Notes under the pieces: generated by a model
What the model saw: the letters and a program-made list of their open reading frames with translations, nothing else
What the model was told of the DNA's origin: nothing
The model's database searches: none
Made by a program: the position numbers and the translations under genes
Source of the DNA: a candidate division WOR-3 bacterium
GTDB taxonomy: Bacteria > Hydrothermota > Tepidihabitantia > SM23-42
Reading direction: 5' to 3'
DNA: 64,000 nt
NCBI GenBank assembly: GCA_020353055.1
Contig: CP070686.1
Coordinates: 1,056,625-1,120,624 of the forward strand
Shown here: positions 7,172-28,935 of the stretch, one piece after another
How the letters are laid out: every line of letters starts with the position of its first letter
How positions within the stretch are numbered: position 1 is the stretch's first letter

Positions 7172-7208
7172 CAGAATGATTATAACGTATATCGGGTATT
7201 CGTCAATA

Positions 7209-7693: not shown

Positions 7694-7721
7694 TTGACAA
7701 TCATTTGGTTGTTGCTATAAT
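7694..7721 (+). promoter_or_regulatory. sigma70-like promoter (TTGACA-N16-TATAAT) ~240 nt upstream of hdrA; probable start of the long redox operon
   Basis: ttgaca 7694-7699, tataat 7716-7721. Confidence 0.45.
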
Positions 7722-7958
7722 ATTTCCAGCACTTTGCATTTTAGCAATAAACAGTCCCGTAGTAGAAAGAATTGCCCTATCACGTTCATTGGAAGTGCCG
7801 TATCGTGTCGTGAAGGGCGCTATTAAAGATATTAAGAGGAGCTTATTTGACATTTTTTGCAATTGAAGGAGCTAATTCATGACCAAATTTTCCGAATTAC
7901 GCAAAATCGGAAGACTTATTATAACGGAGATGTCCCACAAATCTCAAAGGAGTAAACC

Positions 7959-9908
7959 ATGAAGATCGGTGTATATGTCTGCCACTGCGGCGGGAACATA
8001 TCCGAAGTCGTCGACATCAAGCAATTAACATCATTTGCCGAGAAGCAGTCAGACGTCGCAATCGTTCGAGACAATGCACATATGTGTTCTGATGTCGGCC
8101 GAAATCTCGTGCTGGAAGACATCAAAAAACACAATCTTGATAGAATTGTGGTGGCTGCCTGTTCGCCTCAATTTCATGGAAAGACTTTCATGGATATCGT
8201 AAAGAAGGCCGGCCTTTCACCCTATTTGTTCGAGATGGCTAATATCCGCGAACAGTGTTCTTGGCCACACTTTGACGAGCCCGAACTGGCGACCAGGAAG
8301 GCGAAAGACCTGGTGAACGTCGGAATTGCCAAGGTCAAACTTGACGAATCGTTGGAACGAAAAAGCATGCCCATCGGGAAGAGAGTACTCGTGGTTGGCG
8401 CCGGTATTGCAGGCATCCAGGCAGCGCTGGATCTCGGTGATGCCGGTTTCGAGGTTTTTCTCGTAGAGAAGAAACCCACGATCGGCGGGAAAATGGCACA
8501 ACTATCAAGGACGTTTCCAACCGAAGACTGTGCAGCATGTATCCTCTCTCCAAAGATGGCTGATGTTCCGAGCAATCCCAATATTACTTTATTCACTAAT
8601 TCAGAAGTGGAAAAAGTCTCTGGTTTTATCGGCAATTTTGAAGTAACAATTAACAAAAAACCCAGATACGTGAATGACAATTGTGTCTCCTGCGGTATCT
8701 GTGAAGAGAAATGTCCGGTGAAATTACCCAATGAATTCGAACAGGGGTTAACAACCCGCCGGGCGATCTACGTTCCGTTCGAATTTGCGGTACCGTACAA
8801 ATACGTCATCGACGAACCCAACTGCATCTATTTTCAGAAAGGCAAGTGCGGTAACTGTAAGAAGGTCTGCCCGCACGATGCGGTAGACTTCGAACAGAAA
8901 CCCGAAAAAATTGAAATCAAGGTAGACACCATAATCGTCGCGTCTGGCTATGATATCTTTGATGCCAGTGAGAAAAAAGTGTACGGCTTCGGCACGAACG
9001 AAAACGTCATCACCTCCCTGGAAATGGAACGCATGATCGTCCACGAAGCCGAAGGCCGCCCGACGAGAAAGATAGGCAATAGAATAGCATTCATCCAGTG
9101 TGTTGGTTCCCGGGACGAGCAAATCGGAAATGAATACTGCTCGAGGATCTGCTGCATGTATGCAACGAAGCTCTCGCAGCTCCTGAAGAGAACCGACCCG
9201 AAAAGGGATGTCTATGTCTTCTATACAGATCTACGTGCTTACGGTAAGGGTTTTGAAGAATATTACAAAAGAGCAGCACGGACCGGTGTCAAGTTCATTC
9301 GAGGAAGGGTCGCCGAATTGATCGAAGATCCCGAGACCAAAAAAGTGACCGTCAAAGTCGAAGATACCCTGGCACGCCAGATAATAGAATCAGAATTCGA
9401 CCTCGTCGTACTATCGGTGGGCATGCAGCCTGGCGAAGGAACTGGGAAAATCGCCGAGGTTCTGAGGATGACGCGAAGCCCCGGTGGCTTTCTCCAGGAG
9501 GCGCACCCGAAATTCAAACCGGTCGACACCCTCAACGACGGCGTGTTCATATGTGGCTGTGCGCAGGGACCCAAAGATATCCCTGACACCGTAGCACAGG
9601 CGAGTGCTGCTGCGGCGAGGGCGATAAGGCTGATGAATAAAGGTGAATATGAGGTCGAACCAATCACCGCGGTTGTCGACGAGGACCTCTGCAGTGGATG
9701 TGCAACCTGTGTAAGTGTCTGCCCGTACGATGCGGTGAAGACGGAAGTCAAGGATGACAAAAGGGTCGCCAAAGTGAACGAATTTCTTTGTCAAGGCTGT
9801 GGTTCCTGCTCGGCGGCTTGTCCTTCTGGAGCCTCACAGCAGCATTGGTTCATGAGTAGTCAATTAAAGGCCATGGTTGGCGCAGCATTAGGAGAGGAGG
9901 AAGAATGA
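7959..9908 (+). CDS. hdrA: Heterodisulfide reductase subunit A (HdrA), Cys form
   Basis: N-terminal VCHCGGNIS Cys cluster, FAD fold VLVVGAGIAGIQAALDL, FPTEDCAACILSPKM, several CxxCxxCxxxCP ferredoxin motifs. RBS AAGGAG. Confidence 0.85.
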   Translation: MKIGVYVCHCGGNISEVVDIKQLTSFAEKQSDVAIVRDNAHMCSDVGRNLVLEDIKKHNLDRIVVAACSPQFHGKTFMDIVKKAGLSPYLFEMANIREQCSWPHFDEPELATRKAKDLVNVGIAKVKLDESLERKSMPIGKRVLVVGAGIAGIQAALDLGDAGFEVFLVEKKPTIGGKMAQLSRTFPTEDCAACILSPKMADVPSNPNITLFTNSEVEKVSGFIGNFEVTINKKPRYVNDNCVSCGICEEKCPVKLPNEFEQGLTTRRAIYVPFEFAVPYKYVIDEPNCIYFQKGKCGNCKKVCPHDAVDFEQKPEKIEIKVDTIIVASGYDIFDASEKKVYGFGTNENVITSLEMERMIVHEAEGRPTRKIGNRIAFIQCVGSRDEQIGNEYCSRICCMYATKLSQLLKRTDPKRDVYVFYTDLRAYGKGFEEYYKRAARTGVKFIRGRVAELIEDPETKKVTVKVEDTLARQIIESEFDLVVLSVGMQPGEGTGKIAEVLRMTRSPGGFLQEAHPKFKPVDTLNDGVFICGCAQGPKDIPDTVAQASAAAARAIRLMNKGEYEVEPITAVVDEDLCSGCATCVSVCPYDAVKTEVKDDKRVAKVNEFLCQGCGSCSAACPSGASQQHWFMSSQLKAMVGAALGEEEE

Positions 9909-10342
9909 AAAGCAACCCCGACCCAAAGATAATCGCATTTTGCTGTAACTGGTGTTCCTATGCTGGAGCCGACGCTGCCGGAACCTCGAGGCTCCAAATG
10001 AAACCGCATTTCAGAATTGTTCGAGCCATGTGTTCAAGCCGGATCGACCCGGAATTGATCCTCGATGCGTTGAAGAAAGGTGCCTGGGGTGTATTAGTGG
10101 CCGGTTGTCATCCGGGCGACTGTCATTATGTAACCGGTAATTATCGTACCCACAAAAGAATCGCATTGCTCAAGGACCTGCTAAAAGAACTGGGCATAGC
10201 ACCACAAAGGGTAAGGCTGGAGTGGATCTCGGCAAACGAAGGTGGCAAGTTCCAAAAAGTCGTCAACGAATTCATCGATGAAATGTCCGTACTGGGGCCA
10301 CTTGAATTGAAAGGACAGCCAGCCGCCAAGGAGGCATCATGA
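9905..10342 (+). CDS. mvhD: Methyl-viologen-reducing hydrogenase delta subunit homolog (MvhD)
   Basis: FCCNWCSYAGAD ... GCHPGDCHY signature of the MvhD family. Translationally coupled to its neighbours by ATGA overlaps. Confidence 0.85.
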   Translation: MKSNPDPKIIAFCCNWCSYAGADAAGTSRLQMKPHFRIVRAMCSSRIDPELILDALKKGAWGVLVAGCHPGDCHYVTGNYRTHKRIALLKDLLKELGIAPQRVRLEWISANEGGKFQKVVNEFIDEMSVLGPLELKGQPAAKEAS

Positions 10343-10743
10343 TCAAGAAGATCGAGATCTCACCCGAGAACGAGAAGTTCCTGAAAAAAGTCAATGAGCT
10401 CAGTGGGCAGGTCATCACTCTCTGCGAACAATGTGGTACTTGTTCGGGTGGTTGCCCCCTTGTCACTGAGATGGACATAACTCCGTCACAGATGATGAGA
10501 ATCGTCCAATTGGGTCAAAAAGAGGTTCTGGATTACAAGGCAATCTGGGTATGTGCTTCATGTTTCACCTGTACGGTCAGGTGCCCGCGCCAAATCGATG
10601 TATCCAAAGTGGCGGAAGCGCTGCGACAGATCATTCTGAGACAAGCCGTAGACCACATCGACATCAAAGCGATCCCTAAAGAGGAAATAGCCTGCCTTCC
10701 ACAAATCGCACTGGTAAGTGCGTGCCGTAAATTCACAGGATAG
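10339..10743 (+). CDS. hdrC: Heterodisulfide reductase subunit C (HdrC), two [4Fe-4S] clusters
   Basis: CEQCGTCSGGCP and CASCFTCTVRCP motifs; about 134 aa. Confidence 0.8.
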   Translation: MIKKIEISPENEKFLKKVNELSGQVITLCEQCGTCSGGCPLVTEMDITPSQMMRIVQLGQKEVLDYKAIWVCASCFTCTVRCPRQIDVSKVAEALRQIILRQAVDHIDIKAIPKEEIACLPQIALVSACRKFTG

Positions 10744-10753
10744 GAGGAAGAAT

Positions 10754-11695
10754 ATGAATACGACCAAAGAAACGAAATCAAAATCGGCGGAAAATATGAA
10801 ATTCCCCTACTACCCCGGATGTACACTAAAAACAACTGCCAAGAATTTCGAAACCTCAGCTATCGCCACGGCACGTGCACTCGGTGTGGAATTACTCGAG
10901 ATCCCGCGGTGGAACTGCTGCGGTACGGTATTCTCGCTTGCTCAAGACGATCTGATCCATCATGTGGCTTCGGTTCGGAATTTCATCAGGGTCCAGGAGA
11001 TGAATGACTATGGGTTGGTCAAGAACGAGAATCGTCTGGTGACTCTGTGTTCAATGTGCTTCAATACTCTGAAGAGCACAAATCGCCGCATGAAGGATAA
11101 TGCGGAAGATCTAAAAAAGATCAACGATCTCATGTATCGAGAGGAAGATTACAAGGGTAGTGTTGAAGTACTGCATTTCCTCGAACTCCTAAAATCGCTG
11201 GGCTACGACAAGATTCGGGATAAGGTAACCAAACCTCTGAAGGACCTGAAAATCGCGCCCTATTACGGCTGCATGATCTTGCGGCCCAAGGAGATAGCGA
11301 TAGACGACCCGGAAGATCCGACAATCCAAAAAGACCTTCTTGAAGCTCTCGGCGTGTCTGTCATTGATACACCGTATAAGAAGGTGTGTTGTGGAAGTTA
11401 TCAAACCGTCAAGGACAAGTATATAGTTGCTGAGTTGGCATATGACATACTCTCTCATGCGCGCAAAAAAGGCGCAGAGGCACTGACCACGGTCTGTCCC
11501 CTGTGCGCTTTCAATCTTGACCAACGCCAGCAGGCCGTAAAGGAAAAACATCCTGATTTCGAAGAAATGCCCGTCTTCTACATAACCCAATTAATGACCA
11601 TCGCCTTCGGTTTGAACAAAGAAGTATATGGTTTTGAACAGAATTACGTTGATCCAAAGCCGTTGCTCAAAAGCAAATCATTGATCGAAGATTAG
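10754..11695 (+). CDS. hdrB: Heterodisulfide reductase subunit B (HdrB), two CCG domains
   Basis: CCG-domain motifs (WNCCGTVF, KVCCGSY). AGGAGG RBS then ATG at 10754. Confidence 0.8.
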   Translation: MNTTKETKSKSAENMKFPYYPGCTLKTTAKNFETSAIATARALGVELLEIPRWNCCGTVFSLAQDDLIHHVASVRNFIRVQEMNDYGLVKNENRLVTLCSMCFNTLKSTNRRMKDNAEDLKKINDLMYREEDYKGSVEVLHFLELLKSLGYDKIRDKVTKPLKDLKIAPYYGCMILRPKEIAIDDPEDPTIQKDLLEALGVSVIDTPYKKVCCGSYQTVKDKYIVAELAYDILSHARKKGAEALTTVCPLCAFNLDQRQQAVKEKHPDFEEMPVFYITQLMTIAFGLNKEVYGFEQNYVDPKPLLKSKSLIED

Positions 11696-11706
11696 GAGAA
11701 CAAATA

Positions 11707-12465
11707 ATGGAAGATAATAAAAGCCCCATCATGGATAGAATTGCAGAGGCAAATAAGGCTGCGACGACAGGCATTGACGCGAAAGATATCAAGAACTGGA
11801 TCACGATTCACATCATGGGAAAAGCCTACAAGGTACCGGCCGACCTCACAATCCTGACGGCAATGGAGTATGCCGGCTACAAGTTTGTGAGAGGTGTTGG
11901 CTGCCGACAAGGCTTCTGCGGTGCCTGCGCTACTGTTTTCCGCAAGAAAGGAGATTACAAGCTGCAGACCGGCATGGCATGCCAGACCCGGGCCGAAGAC
12001 GGTATGTATCTTGTTCAAATACCTTTCACGCCTGCCGAAAAAGCAATTTATGACATAACGAAGGAACCTTACGAGGCCTCGATATTCATCAAATACTATC
12101 CGGAAGTAACAAGATGTGTATCATGCAATACCTGCACCAAAGCATGCCCGCAAGACCTGGAAGTCATGGATTACGTCCAAGCCGCAATACGCGGGGATTT
12201 CGACTCGCTGTCGGATGTTTCTTTTGACTGCATTCAGTGCGGCCTCTGTGCCATGCGGTGTCCTGCCGAGATTGTGCAATACCACGTCGCCCAACTTGGA
12301 AGAAGGATGTTCGGGCGTTACGGACAGGGAGTGCCGGACCACCTCAGGAAAAGGGTGAAAGAAATCACCGAGGGTAAATTCAACGAGGAAATGGATAAAA
12401 TTACCAGTTGCTCAACCGAGGAACTTCGAAAGATATACACCGAGCGCGAAAAAGAACCAGAATAA
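11707..12465 (+). CDS. Succinate dehydrogenase/fumarate reductase-type iron-sulfur subunit (SdhB/FrdB-like)
   Basis: Plant-type 2Fe-2S motif GCRQGFCGACA...C followed by CVSCNTCTKACP and CIQCGLCAMRCP. Confidence 0.7.
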   Translation: MEDNKSPIMDRIAEANKAATTGIDAKDIKNWITIHIMGKAYKVPADLTILTAMEYAGYKFVRGVGCRQGFCGACATVFRKKGDYKLQTGMACQTRAEDGMYLVQIPFTPAEKAIYDITKEPYEASIFIKYYPEVTRCVSCNTCTKACPQDLEVMDYVQAAIRGDFDSLSDVSFDCIQCGLCAMRCPAEIVQYHVAQLGRRMFGRYGQGVPDHLRKRVKEITEGKFNEEMDKITSCSTEELRKIYTEREKEPE

Positions 12466-12479
12466 GGAAGGAGCAAGAA

Positions 12480-14135
12480 ATGGCAGAATTAAAATATATT
12501 GAAGGCTACCCGGAAAATATCAGAAAAGAAATCGATAAGGTTGCCAAAACGCGCGATAAGAGAATTGATTACACTCCCCCTGCTATGACCATGAAAGAAC
12601 GCGACGAAGTCCTGCGAATTCACCCGGATTATGCCCCTGGAGGCAAGCGTGAAATTCAGGTCGGCCCTAACAAAGGTAACCTCGCGCCGAACGAAGTTGC
12701 CGATCTTCTTGAGGCATACCCTCTAATCGACCAGGATGAGGTGAATCTCTCCCAGGTTGATTACGACACTGATATTTTGATCATCGGCGGCGGCCTGGCT
12801 GGCACATCTGCAGCATTGTGGGCCAATGATAGTGGTATCGCTACCGAACGAATACTGTTGACGAACAAATTAAGACACGGTGATGCAAACTCGATAATGG
12901 CCGAAGGCGGCACGCAAGCGGCCGATCGTGAAGTCGATTCGATCACGAAACACTATATCGACACGATCGGTGGTGGACATTTCGAAAACAAACCCGATGT
13001 CGCCAGAGCATTGGTAGAAGATGCTCCGCTGATTATGAAATGGCTCTGCGAGTTGGGTGCAATCTTCGACCGTGAGGAAAACGGCGATCTTGCCGAAAAA
13101 CTCGCAGGCGGTATATCAGTGAAACGCATGCATTCGTGCCGTGACTACACGGGACTGGAAGAATTTAGAGTATTGAGGGATGAGTTCCGAACACGTGAAA
13201 TTCCTTATCTGGAACACTATCCGGCGATTGAGCTGCTAACCGACGGTGAACGTGTAACCGGCGCTGTCCTGTGGAATCTGGAAACCGGTGAGTACAAGAT
13301 AGTCAAAGCCAAGGCAACGATCATCGCCACCGGTGGTTATGGAAGATTACACATAAGAGGATTTCCCACAACAAATCACTACGGCGCAACTTTTGATGGC
13401 GTCGTTCTGTCTTATCGTGTGGGCGCCAAATTACGTGATATCGACGCAGTACAGTATCATCCAACCGGAGCTGCCTATCCAATCCAGATCGTAGGCTATC
13501 TGCTGACGGAAAAACTCCGAGGCAGCGGCGCGCAGCCGGTGAATGCAGACGGTGAAGCATTCGTTTACCCACTGGAGCCAAGAGATGTTGAAGCATCGGC
13601 GATTATCAGAGAATGCTATGTGCGTAACAAGGGTATCATCACGCCAACCGGGCTCCGCGGTGTCTGGCTCGATACACCCCTGATCGAAATCAAGAACGGC
13701 AAAGGATATATAGAGAAGGCTTTTCCTGGCATGATCAGAATGTACAAGCGGTACGACATCGACATACGCAAAGATCCTGTCTTGGTTTTCCCGACGCTTC
13801 ATTATCAGAACGGCGGTATCGAAACGGATCCCTCGGGCAGAACAAACGTCGACGGCCTGTGGGTCGCAGGTGAGGTATCAGGAGGTGTTCACGGTAAGAA
13901 CCGTTTGATGGGGAATTCCACTCTCGACTGTCTTGTATTCGGAAGACGCGCCGGCATGAGTACTGCAGAATACGTGAAATCGCATGGGGACGAGAGCAAG
14001 ATCAGTCTGGAACACGTGAAAAAATACGTCAAGAATCTTGAACAGGCTGGAGTGAAGCGTACCAGAAGAGCACCGATCATTCTACCTGATTATCGAGGCA
14101 AGGCAGCACTAGCTAGAATGATAGACGTATTCTGA
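12480..14135 (+). CDS. Sdh/Frd/L-aspartate-oxidase-family FAD flavoprotein (SdhA/FrdA-like). It has an N-terminal extension of about 110 aa.
   Basis: DILIIGGGLAGTSAA FAD fold, RHGDANSIMAEGG (His-Ser-x-AAQGG-like), YHPTG and LHYQNGG active-site-type motifs. GGAAGGAG RBS before ATG 12480. Confidence 0.7.
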   Translation: MAELKYIEGYPENIRKEIDKVAKTRDKRIDYTPPAMTMKERDEVLRIHPDYAPGGKREIQVGPNKGNLAPNEVADLLEAYPLIDQDEVNLSQVDYDTDILIIGGGLAGTSAALWANDSGIATERILLTNKLRHGDANSIMAEGGTQAADREVDSITKHYIDTIGGGHFENKPDVARALVEDAPLIMKWLCELGAIFDREENGDLAEKLAGGISVKRMHSCRDYTGLEEFRVLRDEFRTREIPYLEHYPAIELLTDGERVTGAVLWNLETGEYKIVKAKATIIATGGYGRLHIRGFPTTNHYGATFDGVVLSYRVGAKLRDIDAVQYHPTGAAYPIQIVGYLLTEKLRGSGAQPVNADGEAFVYPLEPRDVEASAIIRECYVRNKGIITPTGLRGVWLDTPLIEIKNGKGYIEKAFPGMIRMYKRYDIDIRKDPVLVFPTLHYQNGGIETDPSGRTNVDGLWVAGEVSGGVHGKNRLMGNSTLDCLVFGRRAGMSTAEYVKSHGDESKISLEHVKKYVKNLEQAGVKRTRRAPIILPDYRGKAALARMIDVF

Positions 14136-14224
14136 ACCCGGTATTATATAGAGAATCTTATTGGTCCCGGAAAAAACATTCCCAAATATACCAACGATGA
14201 CAAAGAGAATTAGAAAGGAGTCAG

Positions 14225-15430
14225 ATGAAAGCAGATAAGAGCGGCGTGTTAACCGGCTCTCATATTCTCAGCGGCAACGAGGCGTGCGCAGAAGGAGCCT
14301 TGGCAGCCGGCTGTCGTTTCTTGGGACTTTACCCTATTGTGCCTTCATTAGAGGTTTCGAAGAGATTCCTCCAGCGAGCGCCGGAAGTTGGCGCAACCTT
14401 TATCCAGATGGAAGATGAAGTGTCTGCCCTCGCTGCAGTTTTGGGCGCATCCTGGACCGGCAAAAAATCAATGACTGTAACATCAGGTCCGGGTTTCTCG
14501 CTCATGATGGAGCATCTCGGACTCGGCGTTATGTTGGAGACACCATGCGTGATCGTGGAAATCCAGATGGTCGGTCCGGGTCTTGGACTGCCGACCCGCC
14601 CCGCACAGGGAGATATCATGCAGTCCCGCTGGGGTTCTCATGGTGACTACGAGATAATCGCGTTCGCGCCTAGCTCGGCCCAGGAAATGTTTGACTTCAC
14701 TATCAAAGCATTCAATCTATCGGAACGTTATCGCGTTCCCGTCGCTCTCATGTCAGATGCATATGTCGCTCAACTAAAGGAAAAAGTCGCCATCCCTTCT
14801 GCCGACCAAATTAACATCGAACCGCGCCGATACTACGGTGGACCACGCGATAGTTACCTCCCATTCAAGAGGGATGAGGACTTTGTCCCGCCAATGGTGG
14901 ATATCGGGCAAGGCTACCGCTTTCACGTGACCGGTCTGACTCATGACGACCGGGGTTATCCAATCATGTTCGAAGAATGCCAGGAGTATAACGTTCACCC
15001 GCTGGTCAGAAAAATACGAGACTTCACTGACAAAATAATTGATATCGAGGAAAAGAATACCAATGATGCAGAAGTAGTTATTATTTCATACGGAGTGTCC
15101 TCGCGCGCTTCGCTCAAAGTGGTCGAACAGGCACGCAGCAAGGGACACAAGGTAGGCAGTCTAAAGCTGAACACGGTATGGCCATTCCCCGAAAAGAGAG
15201 TGGCCGAACTCGCAAGTCAGGTAAAGGCGTTTGTGGTCCCCGAGATGAACTTCGGTCAAGTAGTTCAAGAAGTGGAACGGAGCGCATATGGAAAAGCAAA
15301 TATCTTCTTTCTCACTCATGGCGATAACGGAGTTGAATATGCCGGAGATATCCTTGCCGCAGTTGAGGAAGCCTCTCAAATGAAAGAAACAAAATGTGGT
15401 ATCACTGAGTGGAAGAAACGGAGTGCATAA
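14225..15430 (+). CDS. korA: 2-oxoacid:ferredoxin oxidoreductase alpha subunit (KorA/PorA-like), copy 1
   Basis: Typical alpha-subunit sequence (GxYPIxPS ..., GPGFSLM, QSRWGSHGDYE). Note YPIVPS instead of the canonical YPITPS. Confidence 0.8.
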   Translation: MKADKSGVLTGSHILSGNEACAEGALAAGCRFLGLYPIVPSLEVSKRFLQRAPEVGATFIQMEDEVSALAAVLGASWTGKKSMTVTSGPGFSLMMEHLGLGVMLETPCVIVEIQMVGPGLGLPTRPAQGDIMQSRWGSHGDYEIIAFAPSSAQEMFDFTIKAFNLSERYRVPVALMSDAYVAQLKEKVAIPSADQINIEPRRYYGGPRDSYLPFKRDEDFVPPMVDIGQGYRFHVTGLTHDDRGYPIMFEECQEYNVHPLVRKIRDFTDKIIDIEEKNTNDAEVVIISYGVSSRASLKVVEQARSKGHKVGSLKLNTVWPFPEKRVAELASQVKAFVVPEMNFGQVVQEVERSAYGKANIFFLTHGDNGVEYAGDILAAVEEASQMKETKCGITEWKKRSA

Positions 15431-16308: not shown

Positions 16309-16309
16309 C

Positions 16310-18883: not shown

Positions 18884-18886
18884 ACT

Positions 18887-21800: not shown

Positions 21801-23284
21801 GGGTTGTTGTCGCCGCCTGTACACCCAAGACGCATGAAATGAGCTTTCAAGATTCATTAACTGCCGTCGGTCTCAATCCGTACCTCTTCGATATCGCGAA
21901 CATCAGGAATCAATGCTCCTGGGTACATCAGAAAGAACCAGAAAAGGCAACCGAGAAAGCAAAAGAATTAGTCAGGATGTCGGTGGCGCGTGTTCGAAAA
22001 CTAGGTCCGCTCTTCATGAAAGAACTGTCGGTTAACCGCGATGTCGCTGTCATCGGCGCTGGTATCACCGGCCTGCGATGCGGTATTGATTTGCTCCAGC
22101 GGGGCTTTAAGGTCAAAATAATTGAGAAAAAAGAATTATCAGGCGGTCTGGTACGGCATCTCTCCAGCATCTATCCCAGCTTCCGGAAAGGAAGGAATAT
22201 TGTCGAGAAACTTCTCGATGAATTCACCAGTGCGGGCGGCGAACTTCTGACTTCAACAGAACTTGTGGATGTCACCGGTTATGTAGGTAACTTCCAGGTT
22301 AAGGTGAAGAGTGCAAAAGGAGAGACCGAATTCACGGTGGGCGCTATCGTTCTCGCCACGGGGTCAGAACTCTATGATCCAGGCGAGCGCTTTGGCTACG
22401 GTAAATATCCCAATGTCATCACCAACATGGAATTAGAACAAAAACTAATATCGGGTGAAATCGACGATATAAAATCCGTTGCCTTTTTCCAGTGCGTCGG
22501 CTCGAGGGGTGACGACGGTAATCCCGGATGTTCTCGCTATTGCTGTCAGGCAGCAATAAAAGAAGCCATTCATTTAAGAGAAAAAGGGATCGATGTTGCT
22601 ATTCTCAACCGCGGTGTCAGGGTTTATTCAAAAGGCGCCGAGCGGATGTACCGCAAGGCAAGGGAACTCGGCGTCCTATTCTTACCGTACGATGGAGAAC
22701 CAGAGATCACCGGAGCCGATAAGGCGGAAGCGGTCACGATCCCGTCACCAGATATCGATGCCGACATTACCATCCCGGTTAACCTCGTTGTGCTTTCGGT
22801 AGGCATGGTCCCGGCTGCCGATTCAGGACATCTTTCAGAGTTATTTAAGGTCCCGCGTGGGCCTGATAAGTTCTTCCTGGAACGTCACTCGAAATTCGGT
22901 CCGGTAGAAACAACGGTTGAGGGCGTGTTCTTATGCGGTTGTTGTCAGTTCCCGCAGGATATCGGAGATTCGATATCCCAGGCTTCGGCTGTGGCATCGA
23001 AGGTTGCCGCGCTGCTTAGCCGTGACAAGATCACGCTGGCACCCATAACATCTACGGTCATCGAAGAATACTGCCGTGGCTGTGGCAGGTGCGCTGAAGT
23101 ATGCGAATTCCGCGCGATAGAATTGGTTGAGAAGGAAAACGGCGTTTTCGTTGCGCAAGTTAACGAAGCGCTGTGCAAAGGTTGCGGGACGTGCGTCGCG
23201 GCATGCCCAACCGGTGCCATCGACCTCAAACATTTCAGAAGTGAACAGATCGAGGCCCAATTGGAGGCGCTGTTTGAAGGATAA
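18887..23284 (+). CDS. HdrL-like giant heterodisulfide-reductase-A fusion (HdrA half with a GltD/NfnB-like NAD(P)H domain insert, plus a second complete HdrA). It contains an in-frame UGA at 19052-19054 read as selenocysteine. The ORF track splits it into 18887-19054 and 19073-23284.
   Basis: ATG 18887 is 3 nt after the korC stop. N-term [21 protein letters not shown]...[23 protein letters not shown] is colinear with HdrA FPTEDCAACILSPKM (the TGA sits at the second Cys). Both pieces are in the same frame. GltD-like CxxC clusters and [32 protein letters not shown](P)H folds; second [11 protein letters not shown] HdrA module. Confidence 0.75.
19075..19092 (+). promoter_or_regulatory. Putative bacterial SECIS hairpin (GGATGTCGGTCGACATCC) 21 nt downstream of the UGA
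   Basis: Perfect inverted repeat. Identical sequence at the same distance from the second UGA (27093-27110). Absent from the Cys-form hdrA. Confidence 0.5.
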
Positions 23285-23346
23285 ACGCATGGTCAACCAG
23301 ACGGATAATTTGATGATGCGTTCATCCATCACCGAACGGAGATTCA

Positions 23347-23853
23347 ATGAAACAATCGGTTAAGAAAATAAAAGAACGATCCGATCACTCAACGGTTCAA
23401 CGATCCAAGGAAACCTTCGAGCCTAAGATCGTTGCCTTCTGCTGCAACTGGTGCTCATACCCGGCAGCAGACGGTGCGGGCGTCTCCAGGCTGCAATACC
23501 CCACGAATATCAAGATCGTCAGGGTAATGTGCGGCGGCCGCGTGACGCCATCCTTCGTCCTGAAGGCTTTCGAGTTGGGTGCAGACGGCGTTCTGGTTGC
23601 CACCTGCCATTTCGAGGACTGCCACTACATGTTTGGAGCGCGGAAGGCTGCGGATGTGCACAAGGTAACTGAGAAACTCACCGAGATGCTCGGCATCGAG
23701 AAAGAACGTCTCAAACTCGACTGGATCTCATCGGCCGAAGCGTCGAAATTTGCCAGGGTTGCCCGGGAATTCACCGAAACGATTAGAAAACTCGGACCGT
23801 CTACTATAAAGAAGAAGTTGGACGCCCTCAACGAAAGCATTGAAGATGAATAG
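23347..23853 (+). CDS. mvhD: MvhD homolog, second copy
   Basis: FCCNWCSYPAADGAG ... TCHFEDCHY. Confidence 0.85.
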   Translation: MKQSVKKIKERSDHSTVQRSKETFEPKIVAFCCNWCSYPAADGAGVSRLQYPTNIKIVRVMCGGRVTPSFVLKAFELGADGVLVATCHFEDCHYMFGARKAADVHKVTEKLTEMLGIEKERLKLDWISSAEASKFARVAREFTETIRKLGPSTIKKKLDALNESIEDE

Positions 23854-24994
23854 CAAGATCGCCAAAGCCATCAAGGATTCGAAGGCATATTTATGCATGG
23901 AATGCGGTAAGTGCACTGGAACCTGTCCGGTCTCACGATATAACCATGGATATTCTCCACGCATCCTCGTGAACAAAGCGATAAGGAGTGGCGATCTTAA
24001 TTTATTGAAGGACAAAAATATCTGGGCGTGCCTGACCTGTAAATTGTGTGATGAACGTTGCCCTGCTGGCATCGAATACATCGATCTTACACTCACGACG
24101 CGTCTCGAAGCAAAGAAAATAGGAGAGCAAGCGCTCTGCTCTCATGGTGGCGCGGCGCAATCGCTGATGCGCATCATGACAACACCAGAGCTCGAGCAAA
24201 AACGACTCGATTGGATCGACCAAACTCTGAAAACAACACAAAATGGTGAAGTGCTATATTTTGTTGGCTGTCTCCCCTACTTCGACGTTCTGTTCAGCGA
24301 TATAAACGTCAACACCCTGCAAGCGGCAAAGGCGAGTATAAAGATTCTCAATCGGTTAGGTGTCACTCCGGTCGTACTGCCCCAGGAAAGATGTTGTGGG
24401 CATGATCTTCTCTGGAGCGGCGACATGGAGAACTTCGAGAAACTGGCACGGCACAATATCAGAGAAATAAAAAAATCCGGCGCCAAGAAGATCGTTTTTT
24501 CGTGTCCTGAAGGTTACCGGACATTCAAAATCGATTATCCAAAGTATTTCAATACTGATTTTGAGGTCGAACATATCACTGAAGTAATAAGTCGGGCCAT
24601 TTCCAACGGCGAGCTCAAATTAAAGAATCTGAAAAAGGTCGTTACGTTTCAGGATCCTTGCCGGCTCGGCAGGCACCTTGGAATCTACGATGAACCAAGG
24701 AAGGCCATTACCGCAATACCCGAAATACAATTGAACGAGATGGCGAGGAGCCGACAGCGTGCGATATGCTGCGGCGTTAGCGCATGGATGAACTGCTCGA
24801 CCTATTCAAAGAGCATTCAGCGAGCACGGCTTACAGAAGCAAAGGACACAAAGGCTGATCTGCTGGTTCTTTCCTGTCCTAAATGTGAAATTCATTTCCA
24901 GTGTGCTATGCATGACGAAAAAGCAGGCGAGCAAGCGAAAATTGAAACGGTCCAATTGGTCACTATGATTGCAGATGCACTGGAGGGTGAGTAA
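23840..24994 (+). CDS. HdrD-like fused HdrC/HdrB protein (N-terminal 2x[4Fe-4S], C-terminal CCG domains)
   Basis: CMECGKCTGTCP and CLTCKLCDERCP, then CCG motifs (ERCCGHD, AICCGVS). Confidence 0.75.
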   Translation: MKMNSKIAKAIKDSKAYLCMECGKCTGTCPVSRYNHGYSPRILVNKAIRSGDLNLLKDKNIWACLTCKLCDERCPAGIEYIDLTLTTRLEAKKIGEQALCSHGGAAQSLMRIMTTPELEQKRLDWIDQTLKTTQNGEVLYFVGCLPYFDVLFSDINVNTLQAAKASIKILNRLGVTPVVLPQERCCGHDLLWSGDMENFEKLARHNIREIKKSGAKKIVFSCPEGYRTFKIDYPKYFNTDFEVEHITEVISRAISNGELKLKNLKKVVTFQDPCRLGRHLGIYDEPRKAITAIPEIQLNEMARSRQRAICCGVSAWMNCSTYSKSIQRARLTEAKDTKADLLVLSCPKCEIHFQCAMHDEKAGEQAKIETVQLVTMIADALEGE

Positions 24995-25494
24995 TGGCTA
25001 AAGAAAAAATACAAGTTGATTTTCGGTTTCGCGATAAACTCAACAAAGTGCAGGGAGGCAAGCACCATAATTACTGCTACCAGTGCAGCGCGTGTGTTGC
25101 CGTCTGCCCCGCGGCACGATTCACCGAAGAATTCAATCCCCGCGTGATCTTACTGAAGGCACTGCTTGGTATGGAGGAAGCACTCACTGGAGAAGATTCA
25201 CCTATCTGGCTTTGCACAAACTGCTATTCATGTTACGAACGCTGTCCACAAGATGTGCGTCCCATCGAGGTAATTATCGCCTTGAAAAACATGGCCGTGC
25301 AGCGACAGAAAGCACCGGCAAGCCTCGCCAAACTCTCAGACAATATCGCCAAAACCGGAGTCAGCGTCACCGTGACTTCGGCAGTTAACAGACGAAGACA
25401 GGAGTTGGGTCTCCCTCCGATTAAGACAATACCGATCGAAGAGTTGAAAGAGATCCTGGAAGACCCGCAAGGAGCGGCAAAGGACAGTGAATAG
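24994..25494 (+). CDS. hdrC: HdrC-like iron-sulfur subunit, second copy
   Basis: CYQCSACVAVCP and CTNCYSCYERCP. TAATG coupling to the upstream gene. Confidence 0.75.
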   Translation: MAKEKIQVDFRFRDKLNKVQGGKHHNYCYQCSACVAVCPAARFTEEFNPRVILLKALLGMEEALTGEDSPIWLCTNCYSCYERCPQDVRPIEVIIALKNMAVQRQKAPASLAKLSDNIAKTGVSVTVTSAVNRRRQELGLPPIKTIPIEELKEILEDPQGAAKDSE

Positions 25495-25497
25495 ATT

Positions 25498-26382
25498 ATG
25501 AAAGTGATTCCTTTTTGGGGATGTATGATGCCCCTCAAATATCCACAGATGGAACTGGCGATCAGAAAGACTCTTCCTAATCTCGGTATCGAACTCGTGG
25601 ATATCGACGGTTTCACGTGCTGCCCCGATCCCATCTATTTCAAAGCCCGGGACAAGATCAAGTGGCTCACCATTGCCGCACGCAACCTGGCAATTGTCGA
25701 GGAAAAGGGTCTTGATGTCATCACCATGTGCTCGGGGTGTATTTCGACTTTAAAAGAAGCAAAATACACGCTCGACGAAGACCCCCAGGCGAAAGAAGAA
25801 GTAAACCGGCGGTTGAGAAAAGTGAATAGGGAATACAAGGGTACCGCAAAGATAAATCACGCGGTCGTTCTGATCAGAGACAGCCTCGGACTGGATGTCG
25901 TGAAGAAATCAATAAAACGGCCGCTCGAGGGCGTGACAGTTGCGATCCACTATGGTTGTCACATACTGAAACCGAGCCAGATCATGCACGTCGATGACGC
26001 CGATTATCCAAGCATCCTAGATGACTTCGTCTCCGCGATGGGCGCAACACCCCTTGACCATAAAGAAAAACTCCTGTGCTGTGGTAAGGGATGTATGGAC
26101 GAGGACCTCCCCCTCGAAATGACCGAGACTATTTTTGCGTCTATAGAAGAGAGTGGCGCCGATTGCATGGGGCTGGTGTGCCCGACGTGTTTCTCTTCAT
26201 TTGATTTAGGACAAATAATGATTTCCCGCAAAAAGGGGAAAACCTACAATATTCCCGTCATCTACCTGTTTCAACTCCTCGGCCTCGCACAGGGGCTGGA
26301 GCCTGAACAAGTAGGTCTCCACACTCATCGGGTAAAGGCAGATCGAGTGTTGGAAAAAATAAAAGGAAGTGCAAAAGTATGA
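25498..26382 (+). CDS. hdrB: HdrB-like CCG-domain subunit, second copy
   Basis: CCPDP and CCGKGC CCG-domain motifs. Confidence 0.8.
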   Translation: MKVIPFWGCMMPLKYPQMELAIRKTLPNLGIELVDIDGFTCCPDPIYFKARDKIKWLTIAARNLAIVEEKGLDVITMCSGCISTLKEAKYTLDEDPQAKEEVNRRLRKVNREYKGTAKINHAVVLIRDSLGLDVVKKSIKRPLEGVTVAIHYGCHILKPSQIMHVDDADYPSILDDFVSAMGATPLDHKEKLLCCGKGCMDEDLPLEMTETIFASIEESGADCMGLVCPTCFSSFDLGQIMISRKKGKTYNIPVIYLFQLLGLAQGLEPEQVGLHTHRVKADRVLEKIKGSAKV

Positions 26383-26475
26383 AACACTGTTTTGAAAATT
26401 CGAATTTTGGATTTGGATATTGTTTAGTATTTCGATATTCGATATTAGAATTTGAACAAAAAGGGGGTGATCAAG

Positions 26476-28935
26476 ATGCCGCAGGATGATTTGAAAATCG
26501 GCGTTTTTATTTGCGAATGTGGTACAAACATCGCTGGCTCAGTTGATGTCGACAGTGTCGTTGCGAACGCCAAGAAGACAGGTAATGTCGTGTACAGCAC
26601 GAAGAGCCGCTACATGTGTTCGGAACCCGGTCAGGCAGAAATAAAGAAGGCAATAAAAGAGGAGAAACTCGACAGGGTAATCATCGCAGCGTGTTCACCG
26701 CGTATGCACGAACCAACCTTCAGGGAATGTGTCGCCTCGGTCGGCATGAATCCATATCTGGTTGATATGGCAAATATCCGGGAGCAATGCTCATGGGTTC
26801 ATATGGGTAACCGTGAAGCAGCAACAAAGAAAGCTAAAGATATCATGAAGGCATACGTTGCGCGAGCACGATACCTGCAACCGCAGGAGGAAAAGGAAAT
26901 CCCGGTCGAAAGAGCAACATTGATAATCGGCGGTGGGATTGCTGGGATGCAGTCGGCACTCGACCTGGCCGACGCAGGTTACCAGGTATACCTCGTCGAG
27001 AAAGAACCGTCACTGGGTGGTTTGATGTCCAAACTGGCTAAGACATATCCTACCATGGATTGCGCGATATGAATACTCGGCCCGAAGATGATGGATGTCG
27101 GTCGACATCCCAATATCAAGCTTCTGACCAACAGCAAAGTCGAGGCGATAAAAGGCTATGTCGGCAACTTCGACGTTAAGGTACTCAAGAAGACGCGCTA
27201 TGTAGACGAAACTCAGTGTACCGCATGTGGTGATTGCGCCGAAGTGTGCCCGGTTGTCGTTCCGGATGCTTACCAGCAGGGGCTATCATCAAGAAAAGCT
27301 ATTTATATTCCATTCCCCCAGGCCGTGCCATCGGCATCTCTGATCGATATGGAAAGTTGTCTGGGCACCAATCCAATTGCCTGCGGCAAGTGCGCCGACA
27401 AGTGTGACAAGAAATGTATTGACTACGATGCAAAAGACGAAACGATCGAATTCAAGGTCGGTACCGTTATCGTGGCAACGGGTATGGATGTATTTGACCC
27501 GGTGATTCTGGAAGAATACGGTTATACAAAACACGAAAATGTTGTTACGAGCATGGAGTTTGAAAGATTGCTGTCTGCTGGAGGACCCTCTGACGGACAC
27601 TTCATCCGTCCGACCGACCGGCAGAGGCCAAAGACCGTCGGTTTTGTCCAATGCGTTGGTTCGCGCTGCGAAAAGATCGGCAAACCCTACTGTAGCAATA
27701 TCTGCTGCATGAACACGATCAAGGACACGCTACTATTGAAAGACCACTATCCCGACATACAGGCAAAGGTTTTCTACATCGACATCAGGGCTTTTGGTAA
27801 GGGTTTCGAGGATCTGTTCAAACGAAGCAAAGAGGCGGGTGTACAATACATCAGAGGTATTCCCGGAGAGATCACCGAAGACCCCAAGTCCCGTAATCTG
27901 AAGGTTATGGTCGAAGATACTACTTCTAACAAAATAGAAGAACATGAATTTGACATGATGGTTCTCTCTGTCGGAGTGACACCAAGATTAGATATGCCCG
28001 AGGTTCAACAATTACTGACGCTGTCAAAAACGCCCGACGGTTTCTTTATGGAAGCACACCCGAAACTCAAACCAGTGGATGCACCGTCTACCGGCATTTA
28101 TTTTGCAGGCTGTGCCGAGGCGCCGAAGGATGTTAAGGATTCGGTGACCCAGGCGAGCGCAGCAGCGGCCAGAGCCGAAACACTACTATCAGCAGGAAAG
28201 GTCAAATTGGAAGCGATCACGTCCACGCTGGACACTGCTCTATGCCGGTATTGTGCAACGTGTTCCAGGGTATGTCCTTATGGAGCCTTCACCGTTGACC
28301 CGAAAAAGAAAACGATTTCCTACATCGATGCCCTTTGCAAAGGTTGCGGCACATGTGCCGCCGAGTGCCGGTTTGGCGCACTGACAATGAAACACTTCAC
28401 CGATGAACAGATTGTAACTCAAATCGACGCCCATCTCGCCGAAGATCCTGGGGAAAAAGTAATCGTCTTTGCCTGTAACTGGTGTTCTTATGCAGGTGCC
28501 GATACCTGCGGTGGCGCACGGCTTCAGTATCCACCTAACCAGCGTTTGATCAGAACAATGTGTAGTGGCAGGGTAGATGAAAAATTCGTGCTGCATGCGT
28601 TCAGGAAAGGTGCCCCAATGGTTGTCGTATCCGGATGCCATTACGTCGACTGCCACTATATCGATGCGAACCGCTGGACCCAGAAGAGAGTCGAAAAACT
28701 TTGGGATAAATTCGAAAAATGGGGAATTAGACCCGAGAGATTGCTGCTCGAATGGATAAGTGCTGCAGAGGGACAACGGTTTCAAAAAACCATGCAGGAT
28801 ATCGAAGAACTGAGAAAGAAAGTAACAAAAGAAGAGATCGAACAAACAGTAAAGATCCTGACCGAAGAAGAAGAAAAAGATAAGGCAAAAGCTAAGAAGA
28901 AACAAGCTGACAGTCCAACAAAAAAGAAATCGTGA
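26476..28935 (+). CDS. hdrA: HdrA-MvhD fusion protein with an in-frame UGA (27070-27072) read as selenocysteine. The ORF track splits it into 26452-27072 and 27088-28935.
   Basis: GGGGGTGA RBS then ATG 26476. [51 protein letters not shown] (UGA at the Cys position of CAACIL). C-terminal FACNWCSYAGAD...GCHYVDCHY MvhD domain and a Lys-rich tail. Confidence 0.8.
27093..27110 (+). promoter_or_regulatory. Putative SECIS hairpin (GGATGTCGGTCGACATCC) 20 nt downstream of the UGA
   Basis: Identical to the hairpin after the HdrL UGA. Confidence 0.5.

Follow-up and report, generated by a model that had tools for sequence, protein, structure and literature searches.

What unites seventeen soluble redox proteins whose genes follow one another on a single strand of a candidate division WOR-3 genome? 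The genes (G1 to G17, plus strand, 7959-28935) lie in a stretch of 64,000 nucleotides of contig CP070686.1 (assembly GCA_020353055.1, positions 1,056,625 to 1,120,624), referred to below as the window, and their products are related to heterodisulfide reductase (Hdr) and its partner MvhD, to soluble fumarate reductase (Frd) and to 2-oxoacid:ferredoxin oxidoreductase (OFOR). Fumarate reduction by NADH or H2 releases energy worth conserving, and we know of no way in which quinone-free anaerobes capture it. Judged by the predicted proteins and by their neighbourhoods in related genomes, these genes do form a genuine redox unit, which is conserved, makes functional sense as a whole and is composed of two modules. 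The first of these, Unit A, could together with the OFOR form a flavin-based electron-bifurcating fumarate reductase coupled to a 2-oxoglutarate:ferredoxin oxidoreductase, a proposal that we believe about as readily as we doubt it.

Two units in the window and in related genomes

An earlier note, made from the letters of the window, had described seventeen co-directional, tightly packed genes, and this is borne out by open reading frame (ORF) listing and translation. Neighbouring genes overlap by 1-8 nt or are separated by gaps of 1-14 nt, with the exception of three spacers of 89 nt (G6/G7), 62 nt (G12/G13) and 93 nt (G16/G17), and a GGAGG-like ribosome-binding site precedes every one of the 17 start codons. 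Profile searches of each ORF against Pfam and NCBIfam confirmed all domain calls of that note, i.e., HdrA, FlpD/MvhD, CCG, POR_N/TPP_enzyme_C/POR, the GltD/NfnB-like combination of Fer4_20 and Pyr_redox_2, and FAD_binding_2. Its census of modules needs correction, as MvhD occurs three times (G2, G13 and the C-terminus of G17) instead of twice, and the three HdrA homologues that it listed are indeed three proteins (G1, G12 and G17) with four HdrA-like modules, because G12 holds two.

The window proteins were mapped onto about 60 related loci (numbered with an L below). The host belongs to WOR-3, and nearly all of the best 120 homologues of G6, which are 74-100% identical to it, come from this group. 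Unit A consists of G1-G6 (HdrA-MvhD-HdrC-HdrB and a Frd-like pair) and is linked to an OFOR, while Unit B comprises a ferredoxin, a duplicated OFOR, HdrL with selenocysteine (Sec), MvhD, HdrD, HdrC, HdrB and an HdrA/MvhD fusion that also contains Sec. The order seen in the window, namely ferredoxin, G1-G6, G7-G11 and G12-G17, is found in the closest subclade only (L006-L009, L013, L026, L027, L039, L043). Complete WOR-3 chromosomes with the cluster include, besides that of the window, CP070705.1 and CP070802.1. In four other WOR-3 loci (L004, L005, L010, L011; 81-82% G6 identity) Unit A is present in the order ferredoxin-HdrA-MvhD-HdrC-HdrB-G5-G6-OFOR alpha, beta, gamma, with the same flanks as in the window, TamB upstream and two small ORFs and an aminotransferase downstream. 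Many WOR-3 contigs (L023, L031, L038, L041, L055 and others) carry Unit B without G1-G6, in the order ferredoxin-alpha1-beta1-alpha2-beta2-gamma-HdrL(Sec)-MvhD-HdrD-HdrC-HdrB-HdrA/MvhD(Sec)-Zn-ribbon. Because each unit occurs alone in relatives, the seventeen genes are not one indivisible system, and on this comparison the window cluster has been put together from two units that share one OFOR. Of the single dedicated system that had been suggested, the non-accidental linkage of Hdr, Frd and OFOR genes thus stands, but Units A and B are joined only in the subclade of the window. An alignment of the G6-G7 spacer with the ferredoxin-alpha1 spacers showed nothing informative about an insertion scar at the seam between the two units.

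Beyond these arrangements, G5 and G6 homologues are again encoded with HdrA, MvhD, HdrC/B and an OFOR, now together with an electron donor module that sits between MvhD and HdrC or G5. This module is the MvhG and MvhA [NiFe] hydrogenase pair in L002 (WOR-3), L014 (Thermoplasmata), L016 (Heimdallarchaeota), L018 and L022 (Planctomycetota), and a FlxABC-like trio in Aminicenantes (L017, L021); no homologue of either module was found in the 64-kb window. Among 16 G6-bearing loci with enough flanking sequence, which span WOR-3, Aminicenantes, Thermoplasmata and Heimdallarchaeota, HdrA, MvhD and HdrB are encoded nearby in 15 and an OFOR in about 13. The genes are even interleaved: the six-gene cassette lies between OFOR delta and alpha in the window and in L004, and the OFOR lies between hdrB and hdrA in L017 and L021. 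In effect, the six-gene Hdr-Frd cassette of the window, with its own promoter, sits between an oorD-like delta and an oorA-like alpha gene. A conserved neighbourhood, which the earlier reading implied, was therefore recovered, with Hdr, Frd-like and OFOR genes linked or interleaved in WOR-3, Aminicenantes, Thermoplasmata, Heimdallarchaeota and other metagenome-assembled genomes (MAGs). The genes for Hdr, soluble Frd and OFOR thus appear as a cassette that is widespread (in MAGs of WOR-3, Aminicenantes, Thermoplasmata, Heimdallarchaeota and Planctomycetota) and whose donors can be exchanged, a distribution that lends comparative support to the proposal of a bifurcating fumarate reductase and provides many candidate enzymes.

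Some related loci depart from these layouts. In CP070795.1 (WOR-3 bin1428; L015 and L020) the cluster is split midway through G6, with G1-G5 and G6 residues 1-167 at 1.87-1.89 Mb and residues 205-551 with G7-G9 at 0.58-0.60 Mb, which is either a rearrangement or a misassembly. In the closest relative (L013 3612-5760, CP070802.1; 96% G6 identity) a gene for a 478-aa glutaredoxin/thioredoxin-like protein and a 149-aa ORF stand in place of the ferredoxin gene, the promoter and the first ~88 codons of G1; this replacement may point to a thiol partner or be an assembly artefact. Small genes whose four-helix products belong to the 23S_rRNA_IVP family (PF05635, bAvd-like) are scattered over homologous clusters (L002 2947-3351, L024 14300-14728, L018 9572-9919; also L031, L046 and L047) at varying sites (HdrA/MvhD, MvhD/HdrD, G5/G6 and beta2/gamma junctions), so that this small gene looks like a mobile or selfish element.

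A candidate bifurcating fumarate reductase

The catalytic subunit of the proposed enzyme, G6, belongs to the FrdA/SdhA/NadB superfamily. Its best NCBIfam match is TfrA (309 bits against a cut-off of 718), no curated cut-off being reached, and it lacks the Succ_DH_flav_C domain (no PF02910 match) and has a conserved, family-specific N-terminal extension of ~95 aa. In an alignment with Escherichia coli FrdA and Mycobacterium smegmatis SdhA, G6 keeps H232 (QYHPTG), T244/E245/R248, R287 (PRD), H355 and R390, and has Asn at the position of the His that binds FAD covalently (His44); these key residues are invariant across 15 family members, down to 55% identity. In E. coli FrdA, His44 mutants lose the covalent flavin link, and with it succinate oxidation, and still reduce fumarate. 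Because of the Asn at this position, fumarate reduction would be favoured over succinate oxidation in G6. In the iron-sulfur protein G5, a plant-type [2Fe-2S] motif is accompanied by two [4Fe-4S] motifs with four Cys each, and a 3Fe motif is lacking, a set of clusters that we liken to those of TfrB and type-E SdhB. Hallmarks of the classical membrane-bound succinate:quinone and quinol:fumarate reductases are missing: no transmembrane helix that could serve as an anchor is predicted in any of the 17 proteins (no hydrophobic 19-mer >1.9), and neither the covalent-FAD His, the 3Fe motif nor PF02910 was found. We infer that G5/G6 would be a one-way soluble fumarate reductase fed from the clusters of HdrC and HdrB. 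Contact between G4 and G5 is plausible because TfrB of methanogens, which we take to be a natural fusion of SdhB-like and HdrB-like parts, joins the two kinds of domain, and G4 scores almost equally as HdrB (TIGR03288, 165 bits; cut-off 345) and as SdhE, the CCG subunit of type-E fumarate reductases (MFR SdhE model, 153 bits).

Another function of G5/G6 seems very improbable to us. The pair would then be a confurcating dehydrogenase that oxidizes succinate, with reduced ferredoxin as second donor and H2 or NAD(P)H as product, or its substrate would be a different one, e.g., L-aspartate or another enoate. For Culexarchaeia, Hdr complexes linked to succinate have been suggested (PMC9723716), NadB models score nearly as high on G6 as TfrA/SdhA models do, none of them reaching its curated cut-off, and a nadA gene is present in the window (47389-48297); the absence of the SdhA C-terminal domain and the unique N-terminal extension would also agree with another substrate. 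However, G6 has, unlike NadB, a dedicated 2Fe-2S/2x4Fe-4S partner, and the covalent-FAD His normally required to oxidize succinate is absent. Moreover, by established values the mean potential of succinate and reduced ferredoxin would, in ordinary circumstances, be too positive for a reduction of protons or NAD+, and the sucCD and OFOR context also speaks against such a function.

The remaining proteins of Unit A could supply the bifurcating part. G1 aligns over residues 2-638 with the HdrA chain 5odc_A (E = 3.9e-229) and contains all domains of a full-length HdrA, i.e., the N-terminal cluster domain, the FAD domain, and the inserted and C-terminal ferredoxin domains, and G4 matches solved HdrB chains with E values of 1e-34 to 1e-42. 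In the proposed mechanism, electron pairs would enter via MvhD and reach the flavin of HdrA. The donor in relatives would be H2, via MvhGA, or NAD(P)H, via FlxABC, and in the clade of the window probably NAD(P)H, via HdrL of the adjacent Unit B, which is a candidate entry point because HdrL carries an NfnB-type NAD(P)H/FAD module. The high-potential electron would travel from HdrC through the non-cubane clusters of HdrB and the three clusters of G5 to the non-covalent FAD of G6, where fumarate would be reduced to succinate, while the low-potential electron would pass through the ferredoxin domains of HdrA to the OFOR-delta-type ferredoxin. Reduced ferredoxin would drive the OFOR (succinyl-CoA + CO2 to 2-oxoglutarate) or join the ferredoxin pool; alternatively, it may feed Rnf for energy conservation. 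With standard potentials of -320 mV for NAD(P)H, near -480 mV for ferredoxin and about +30 mV (E0') for fumarate, such a bifurcation would be exergonic, because the mean potential of the acceptors (~ -225 mV) lies above that of the donor. In L002, sucCD is located between G6 and the OFOR and rnfC adjoins the cluster; this placement of sucCD is the reason why the path from fumarate through succinate and succinyl-CoA to 2-oxoglutarate fits. One reduced ferredoxin would be formed per succinate, which is the amount consumed in converting succinyl-CoA to 2-oxoglutarate, and if the proposal is true, the cassette would by this exact stoichiometry explain how such organisms operate the reductive branch to 2-oxoglutarate, and would bear on the energetics of carbon fixation by reductive tricarboxylic acid (rTCA)-type pathways.

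The direction assumed here differs from the one first envisaged. The earlier note had considered the coupling of 2-oxoacid oxidation and NAD(P)H to the reduction of fumarate or a disulfide; this idea is most coherent if NAD(P)H, fumarate and ferredoxin/OFOR are coupled by bifurcation, but the likely direction is fumarate reduction with ferredoxin/OFOR as low-potential acceptor, because G6 lacks the covalent-FAD His, sucCD adjoins the genes in L002 and the Mvh and Flx donors occupy the same place in relatives. The oxidative direction is central to a catabolic explanation that we consider decidedly unlikely. According to this, the seventeen genes would be co-located redox housekeeping and not one machine, in which the OFOR oxidizes 2-oxoglutarate from glutamate or histidine fermentation to succinyl-CoA and reduced ferredoxin, the Hdr/HdrL proteins redistribute electrons (reduced ferredoxin and a second donor to NAD(P)H, as in Nfn) and the Frd-like pair is one sink among others. 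Such loose coupling would agree with the separate occurrence of Units A and B, with hutH, hutU and an aminotransferase and aldehyde dehydrogenase pair near the cluster, with the membership of the NfnB-like module of HdrL in a transhydrogenase-type family, and with weak promoter-like sites (9/12 each) in the gaps before G7 (14118-14147) and G17 (26392-26421). It does not predict, however, the interleaving of OFOR and Hdr genes in several phyla, and the Mvh and Flx donors of relatives represent an input of electrons, not an output. In addition, the confurcation of two donors far more negative than fumarate would be energetically senseless.

The bifurcating arrangement proposed here for Unit A and the OFOR has precedents, and the impression of the earlier note that the design had not been described no longer holds: clusters of Kor, Tfr and Flx-Hdr genes were proposed in 2019 (PMC6315080; also a preprint as cited in PMC7282089). 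In the tubeworm symbionts and in Thioflavicoccus mobilis, korABCD and tfrAB are interspersed with flxABCD-hdrABC, and the products were proposed to form a bifurcating complex (Rubin-Blum 2019, PMC6315080). Co-expression of the cluster has been reported for Endoriftia only (Mitchell 2024, PMC11636981), and a 2026 survey of the rTCA cycle restates the model and also describes the NADH-dependent fumarate reductase of Hydrogenobacter as soluble, with five subunits (ABCDE) (PMC13147460). The clusters of the symbionts (Ca. Endoriftia and the Escarpia symbiont) and T. mobilis resemble the window in the interleaving of a 2-oxoglutarate:ferredoxin oxidoreductase (OGOR), a soluble two-subunit Tfr/Frd and HdrABC with MvhD/FlxD, and in both cases bifurcation to fumarate reductase and OGOR is proposed from the genes. 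The defining combination, hdrABC with flxD/mvhD and a two-gene frd/tfr (and kor), is found in G1-G11 of the window and in 13-15 of the 16 related loci. The window differs in lacking FlxABC, in having no ATP-citrate lyase or other rTCA genes nearby, in its second Hdr set with the selenoprotein HdrL and its duplicated OFOR with a dead beta subunit, and in its host, since for the WOR-3 phylum a mostly fermentative or hydrogenotrophic way of life is predicted; the likeness of G5/G6 to TfrAB is one of description.

A similar coupling of succinate formation to ferredoxin reduction has been proposed for the 'succinate operon' of Pseudoclostridium thermosuccinogenes (PMC7282089, citing the 2019 preprint of Koendjbiharie and van Kranenburg). 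As described there, this operon (fumarase, Flx-Hdr and a two-gene fumarate reductase) also combines a soluble Frd with complete Hdr and Flx/MvhD proteins, a layout that by description recurs with G5/G6 in L017 and L021, and differs from the window in having no OFOR genes, a Flx donor instead of HdrL and a role in catabolic succinate fermentation. L017, which is labelled 'Eubacteriales', was considered as a sequence link to P. thermosuccinogenes and set aside, as the top matches of its G6 homologue are all from Aminicenantes/Acidobacteriota and the locus is probably mis-binned. The fumarate passages of the 2018 Buckel-Thauer review describe no bifurcating fumarate reductase.

In methanogens, Kor depends on reduced ferredoxin in the reductive branch that leads to 2-oxoglutarate, a logic that we apply to the window as well. 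Methanogen TfrAB and MvhAGD-HdrABC (HdrABC-MvhAGD structures 5odc and 8rvu) share their parts with the window. These parts are a TfrA-like flavoprotein, SdhB-like clusters, HdrB CCG domains, HdrA, HdrC and MvhD. G6 has the fumarate-binding His/Arg set of TfrA and a predicted non-covalent FAD, but the fused TfrB is replaced by G5 (clusters), G4 (CCG) and G3, in which the TfrB model scores 25-48 bits against a cut-off of 385, and the equivalog scores of both TfrA and TfrB are missed. Similarly, a full HdrA, an HdrB with two CCG domains, an HdrC dicluster and MvhD are all present, with scores below the equivalog level (e.g., G1 with 859 bits for HdrA2, cut-off 1100, and G3 with 72 bits for HdrC TIGR03290, cut-off 160). 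Whereas the methanogen thiol:fumarate reductase (Heim 1998, as cited in PMC6315080), with TfrB as one polypeptide, and Hdr are two enzymes linked by coenzyme M and coenzyme B thiols (CoM-SH/CoB-SH), the functions of TfrB are split over G3, G4 and G5 in the window and have their own HdrA and MvhD.

A two-enzyme shuttle of this kind in the window is rather unlikely. G3-G6 would in that case be a split thiol:fumarate reductase that oxidizes a dithiol at HdrB, and the Hdr set of Unit B would be a bifurcating NAD(P)H-dependent disulfide reductase that also reduces ferredoxin/OFOR. A thiol, either diffusible or bound to a protein (DsrC-like, lipoyl or thioredoxin-like), would link the two in place of direct wiring. 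The three HdrB-type active-site modules (G4, G14 and G16) exceed the need of a single electron path, Unit B must have some high-potential acceptor where it occurs alone, and TfrA as the best match of G6 and the TfrB matches of G3, G4 and G5 also suit a thiol-dependent enzyme. In relatives, an HdrL cluster adjoins the gene of the lipoyl protein GcvH (L025), and the glutaredoxin/thioredoxin-like gene of L013 lies directly upstream of G1; a DsrC-like carrier is also allowed by Mitchell 2024 (PMC11636981). In the window itself, however, no candidate thiol carrier is encoded, the two small ORFs downstream being devoid of Cys motifs, and the HdrA and MvhD of Unit A would be superfluous for a simple Tfr, while CoM/CoB thiols would presumably not be expected in a bacterium.

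Several observations weigh against a bifurcating fumarate reductase wired to the OFOR. Our searches found no biochemical demonstration of such an enzyme, and a full-text literature search for the term returned nothing. The curated NCBIfam cut-offs for HdrA, HdrB, HdrC and TfrA are all missed, so that the corresponding proteins are homologues and not equivalogs of these families. Unit A has no donor module nearby in the L004-type genomes and Unit B occurs without Unit A; since each unit is found alone, their link is not obligatory, and one locus (L012) encodes G5/G6 without adjacent Hdr genes. The hutH and hutU products in the window, which lead to glutamate and 2-oxoglutarate, would fit an oxidative OFOR. 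Finally, an AlphaFold model of G6 built from a 15-sequence alignment reached a mean pLDDT of 48 and was unusable.

HdrL, the duplicated OFOR and selenocysteine

Unit B centres on G12, in which a segment corresponding to HdrA residues ~136-291 is followed by an NfnB/GltD-like NAD(P)H-FAD module, a segment corresponding to HdrA ~296-567 and a second HdrA copy. The first HdrA core lacks the N-terminal and C-terminal ferredoxin domains, the second copy (2-231 and 319-642) lacks the inserted ferredoxin domain, and the module between the two halves of the first core matches the NfnB-type chains 9n5u, 8oh5 and 5jca with E values of 1e-99 to 1e-129. We infer from this order that G12 would be a single-chain asymmetric HdrA dimer with a built-in entry for NAD(P)H. 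The HdrL proteins of Desulfobacterium autotrophicum HRM2, proposed to be NADH-linked Hdr proteins, are likewise fusions of HdrA with a glutamate synthase small subunit, contain Sec in some copies and always have mvhD next to them (Strittmatter 2009, PMC2702500). G12 has the same characteristics, i.e., HdrA with a GltD/NfnB-type module, Sec at DCxxU and an mvhD gene (G13) that begins 62 nt 3' of it. The neighbours differ: HdrL of HRM2 is accompanied by dsr, fdh and hdrD, not by OFOR genes, whereas here the OFOR precedes HdrL and HdrD-HdrC-HdrB-HdrA/MvhD follows. Among these, G14 has CPEG in its first CCG domain where CxxC is expected, G16 carries complete C...CC...CxxC motifs, as does G4, and G17 is 45% identical to G1. 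The duplicated OFOR precedes HdrL in nearly all of the related loci that searches with G10 or HdrL brought up; an exception (L025, 1-1383 and 8924-19851) encodes a distant HdrL homologue (47% identity) in the order HdrB-HdrL-MvhD-FlxCBA-HdrC, and adjoins GcvH and a carbon monoxide dehydrogenase/acetyl-CoA synthase subunit gene with two intein and LAGLIDADG insertions.

The subunit set delta-alpha-beta-gamma of the OFOR is complete (ferredoxin, G7/G9, G8 and G11), as in the 2-oxoglutarate:acceptor oxidoreductases OorDABC/KorABCD (8ys5; PRK09628, PRK08659). Beta1 (G8) shares the motifs of these enzymes, as it keeps the four [4Fe-4S] cysteines (CxxC, C, C) and the GDGD...NN motif for thiamine pyrophosphate, and its closest solved chain is the beta subunit of a 2-oxoglutarate:ferredoxin oxidoreductase (8ys5_C, E = 5e-59). 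Of the NCBIfam models, only PRK08659, a generic one for 2-oxoacid alpha subunits, reaches its cut-off, and the Kor/Oor equivalogs fall short. Unlike OorDABC/KorABCD, the window has an additional alpha2/beta2 pair, and six genes are inserted between its delta and alpha genes. The ferredoxin gene shares 67% identity with the delta gene that L002 has within its OFOR operon, and 78% with the L004 ferredoxin gene, and lies directly upstream of alpha1 in loci with Unit B only, whereas the Hdr-Frd cassette intervenes here. Beta2 (G10) begins after the CxxC and has also lost the third and fourth ligand, so that none of the four cluster cysteines is left; a two-residue deletion removes GDG, and KI(A/G)G(K/Q) replaces MTGGQ. 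All seven beta2 family members that were compared share these losses, and beta2 is kept at 50-95% identity in many WOR-3 contigs (further beta2 genes at L002 19392-20156, L023 8454-9239 and L024 8082-8846), so that beta2 is an old and conserved, presumably non-catalytic subunit. This pattern suggests that only one of the two alpha/beta pairs of the OFOR is catalytic, and no description of an OFOR with a dead second beta subunit was found in our literature searches. Losses in the alpha paralogues were also tried as a guide to the live alpha/beta site, an approach that was abandoned as both alphas are well conserved; of the ancestral invariant positions, alpha1 has lost 14 (including both Thr of YPITP) and alpha2 eight.

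The half-degenerate OFOR and HdrL are the main components of a still bolder idea that we consider quite improbable, i.e., one wired megacomplex as a bacterial counterpart of the methanogen Hdr-Vhu-Fwd super-assembly. The OFOR would then be pseudo-symmetric, one protomer being live and the other, a dead alpha/beta protomer, serving as docking scaffold; its delta ferredoxin would plug into the low-potential arm of HdrA/HdrL, and the Frd-like pair into HdrB. HdrL, uniting NfnB-type and HdrA-type bifurcating flavins, would mimic an asymmetric HdrA dimer, and NAD(P)H would drive both fumarate reduction and reductive succinyl-CoA carboxylation without free ferredoxin. Apart from such an assembly, Unit B contributes two undescribed elements, namely the OFOR with a conserved dead second beta subunit and an HdrL-centred Hdr system that in the recovered loci is nearly always accompanied by the genes of that OFOR. 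The core concept of the window cluster has thus been proposed before, and for the HdrL unit with its half-dead OFOR there appears to be no earlier description.

Two genes of Unit B contain an in-frame TGA (G12, 19052; G17, 27070) that aligns with a Cys of G1 in the motif DCxxC/U-ILxPK. Both TGA codons are followed 23 nt downstream by a hairpin (GGAUGUC-GGUC-GACAUCC) that resembles a selenocysteine insertion sequence (SECIS). In the related loci, a SECIS-like hairpin of this kind (GGAUGUC-GGUC-GRCAUCC) comes after the TGA at 33 out of 33 sites, its sole common change being A/G at one position, with pairing kept, and the synonymous codon positions inside it are frozen. Versions with Cys have no hairpin, and the mean minimum free energy is -6.5 kcal/mol for these and -11.5 kcal/mol for the TGA versions. 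The locus thereby documents that HdrA and HdrL genes of WOR-3 encode predicted selenoproteins. Gene callers cut or split such genes at the UGA (window 19073-23284 and 27088-28935; L023 17351-19792): in the public annotation, HdrL is a 1403-aa protein from the first ATG after the UGA, and HdrA/MvhD is given as proteins of 198 and 609 aa. This truncation and splitting makes WOR-3 selenoproteins invisible in current annotations. A 2025 survey of 181 WOR-3 MAGs names mvhADG-hdrABC, found in 34 MAGs, as its sole Hdr cluster and mentions neither the cluster of the window nor selenoproteins or selenocysteine (PMC12542636).

Transcription signals, extent of the run and flanking genes

The features of the cluster are listed in Table 1. 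The single consensus promoter that had been described for the run is a perfect site, and its GTTGACA...TATAAT is kept in five related loci (L004, L006, L008, L009, L011), but the ferredoxin gene has a 12/12 promoter of its own. The absence of internal terminators was corroborated, since terminator-like matches on the plus strand are all intragenic and not in excess (25 versus 20.3 ± 4.5 in shuffled sequences). Of the extent first given to the cluster (7694-28935), the seventeen genes stand, and the ferredoxin gene (7254-7547) and the Zn-ribbon ORF (28988-29158) have to be added; small ORFs occupy the position of the latter after HdrA/MvhD in loci with Unit B only (L023, L024). The first strong terminator comes after two further small conserved ORFs.

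Table 1. Position, strand and supporting evidence of the features of the cluster in the window.
Feature	Position	Strand	Evidence or remark
Promoter, ferredoxin/OFOR delta gene	7209-7236	+	sigma-70 TTGACA-16-TATAAT, 12/12
Ferredoxin 2x[4Fe-4S], OFOR delta (OorD-like)	7254-7547	+	Pfam Fer4/Fer4_7
Promoter, 17-gene run	7694-7721	+	sigma-70 TTGACA-16-(TG)TATAAT, extended -10, 12/12
Candidate upstream ORF, 27 codons (MTKFSELRKIGRLIITEMSHKSQRSKP)	7879-7962	+	own GAAGGAG Shine-Dalgarno; stop overlaps G1 ATG (ATGA)
G1 HdrA, full-length, Cys at Sec/Cys site	7959-9908	+	5odc_A HdrA
G2 MvhD/FlxD-type [2Fe-2S] protein	9905-10342	+	PF02662, E = 3e-54
G3 HdrC-like 2x[4Fe-4S] subunit	10339-10743	+	Fer4_17/Fer4_8
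G4 HdrB/SdhE-like, two complete CCG motifs	10754-11695	+	PF02754 x2
G5 FrdB/TfrB-like Fe-S subunit	11707-12465	+	Fer2 + Fer4; weak TfrB match
G6 soluble fumarate-reductase-like flavoprotein	12480-14135	+	PF00890, E = 4e-64
G7 OFOR alpha1, YPIVPS variant of YPITP motif	14225-15430	+	POR_N, PFOR_II
G8 OFOR beta1, catalytic-type	15430-16308	+	TPP_enzyme_C
G9 OFOR alpha2, canonical YPITPS	16310-17551	+	Pfam
G10 OFOR beta2, degenerate	17548-18324	+	Pfam, motif comparison
G11 OFOR gamma	18317-18883	+	PF01558, E = 5e-32
G12 HdrL, 1465 aa including Sec	18887-23284	+	profile domain map
Predicted UGA(Sec) and SECIS-like hairpin, G12	19052-19092	+	hairpin 19075-19092, GGUC loop
G13 MvhD	23347-23853	+	PF02662, E = 2e-50
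G14 HdrD-like	23846-24994	+	HdrC-like dicluster fused to two CCG domains
G15 HdrC-like	24994-25494	+	Pfam
G16 HdrB-like, two complete CCG motifs	25498-26382	+	PF02754 x2
G17 HdrA-MvhD fusion, 819 aa including Sec	26476-28935	+	HdrA domains + FlpD (residues 662-778)
Predicted UGA(Sec) and SECIS-like hairpin, G17	27070-27110	+	hairpin 27093-27110
56-aa Zn-ribbon ORF, CxxC...CxxC	28988-29158	+	PF09723 24.8 bits, under cut-off
First strong intrinsic terminator downstream of cluster	30223-30251	bidirectional	palindromic; 13-bp stem, 8 GC pairs

The region upstream of G1 is rich in signals. Divergent promoters occupy 7179-7236, with the 12/12 site of the ferredoxin gene on the plus strand and an 11/12 site on the minus strand that points toward the TamB-like gene, so that with the promoter at 7694 three near-perfect sigma-70 sites lie within ~550 nt. 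The 27-codon upstream ORF sits in a leader of ~230 nt and is found in the subclade of the window and not in the L004 type (L004, L011). No Rfam family was matched in the window, nor in the 5' leader at relaxed thresholds, and no tRNA genes were found in the 64 kb.

The two small ORFs before the terminator (29223-29618 and 29714-30193) have no Pfam match and no Cys motif, for which reason they were rejected as thiol carriers; the second carries a signal peptide of the lipoprotein type. L004, which is without Unit B, has both in the same place (63% and 44% identity). Further on, and convergent to the cluster, a class-III aminotransferase and an aldehyde dehydrogenase form a gamma-aminobutyrate-shunt-like pair on the minus strand (30254-33255), in the same synteny as in L004, followed by genes for histidine ammonia-lyase (37593-39116) and urocanase (44743-46425). 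The pair, hutH and hutU all tie into the metabolism of glutamate, 2-oxoglutarate and succinate.

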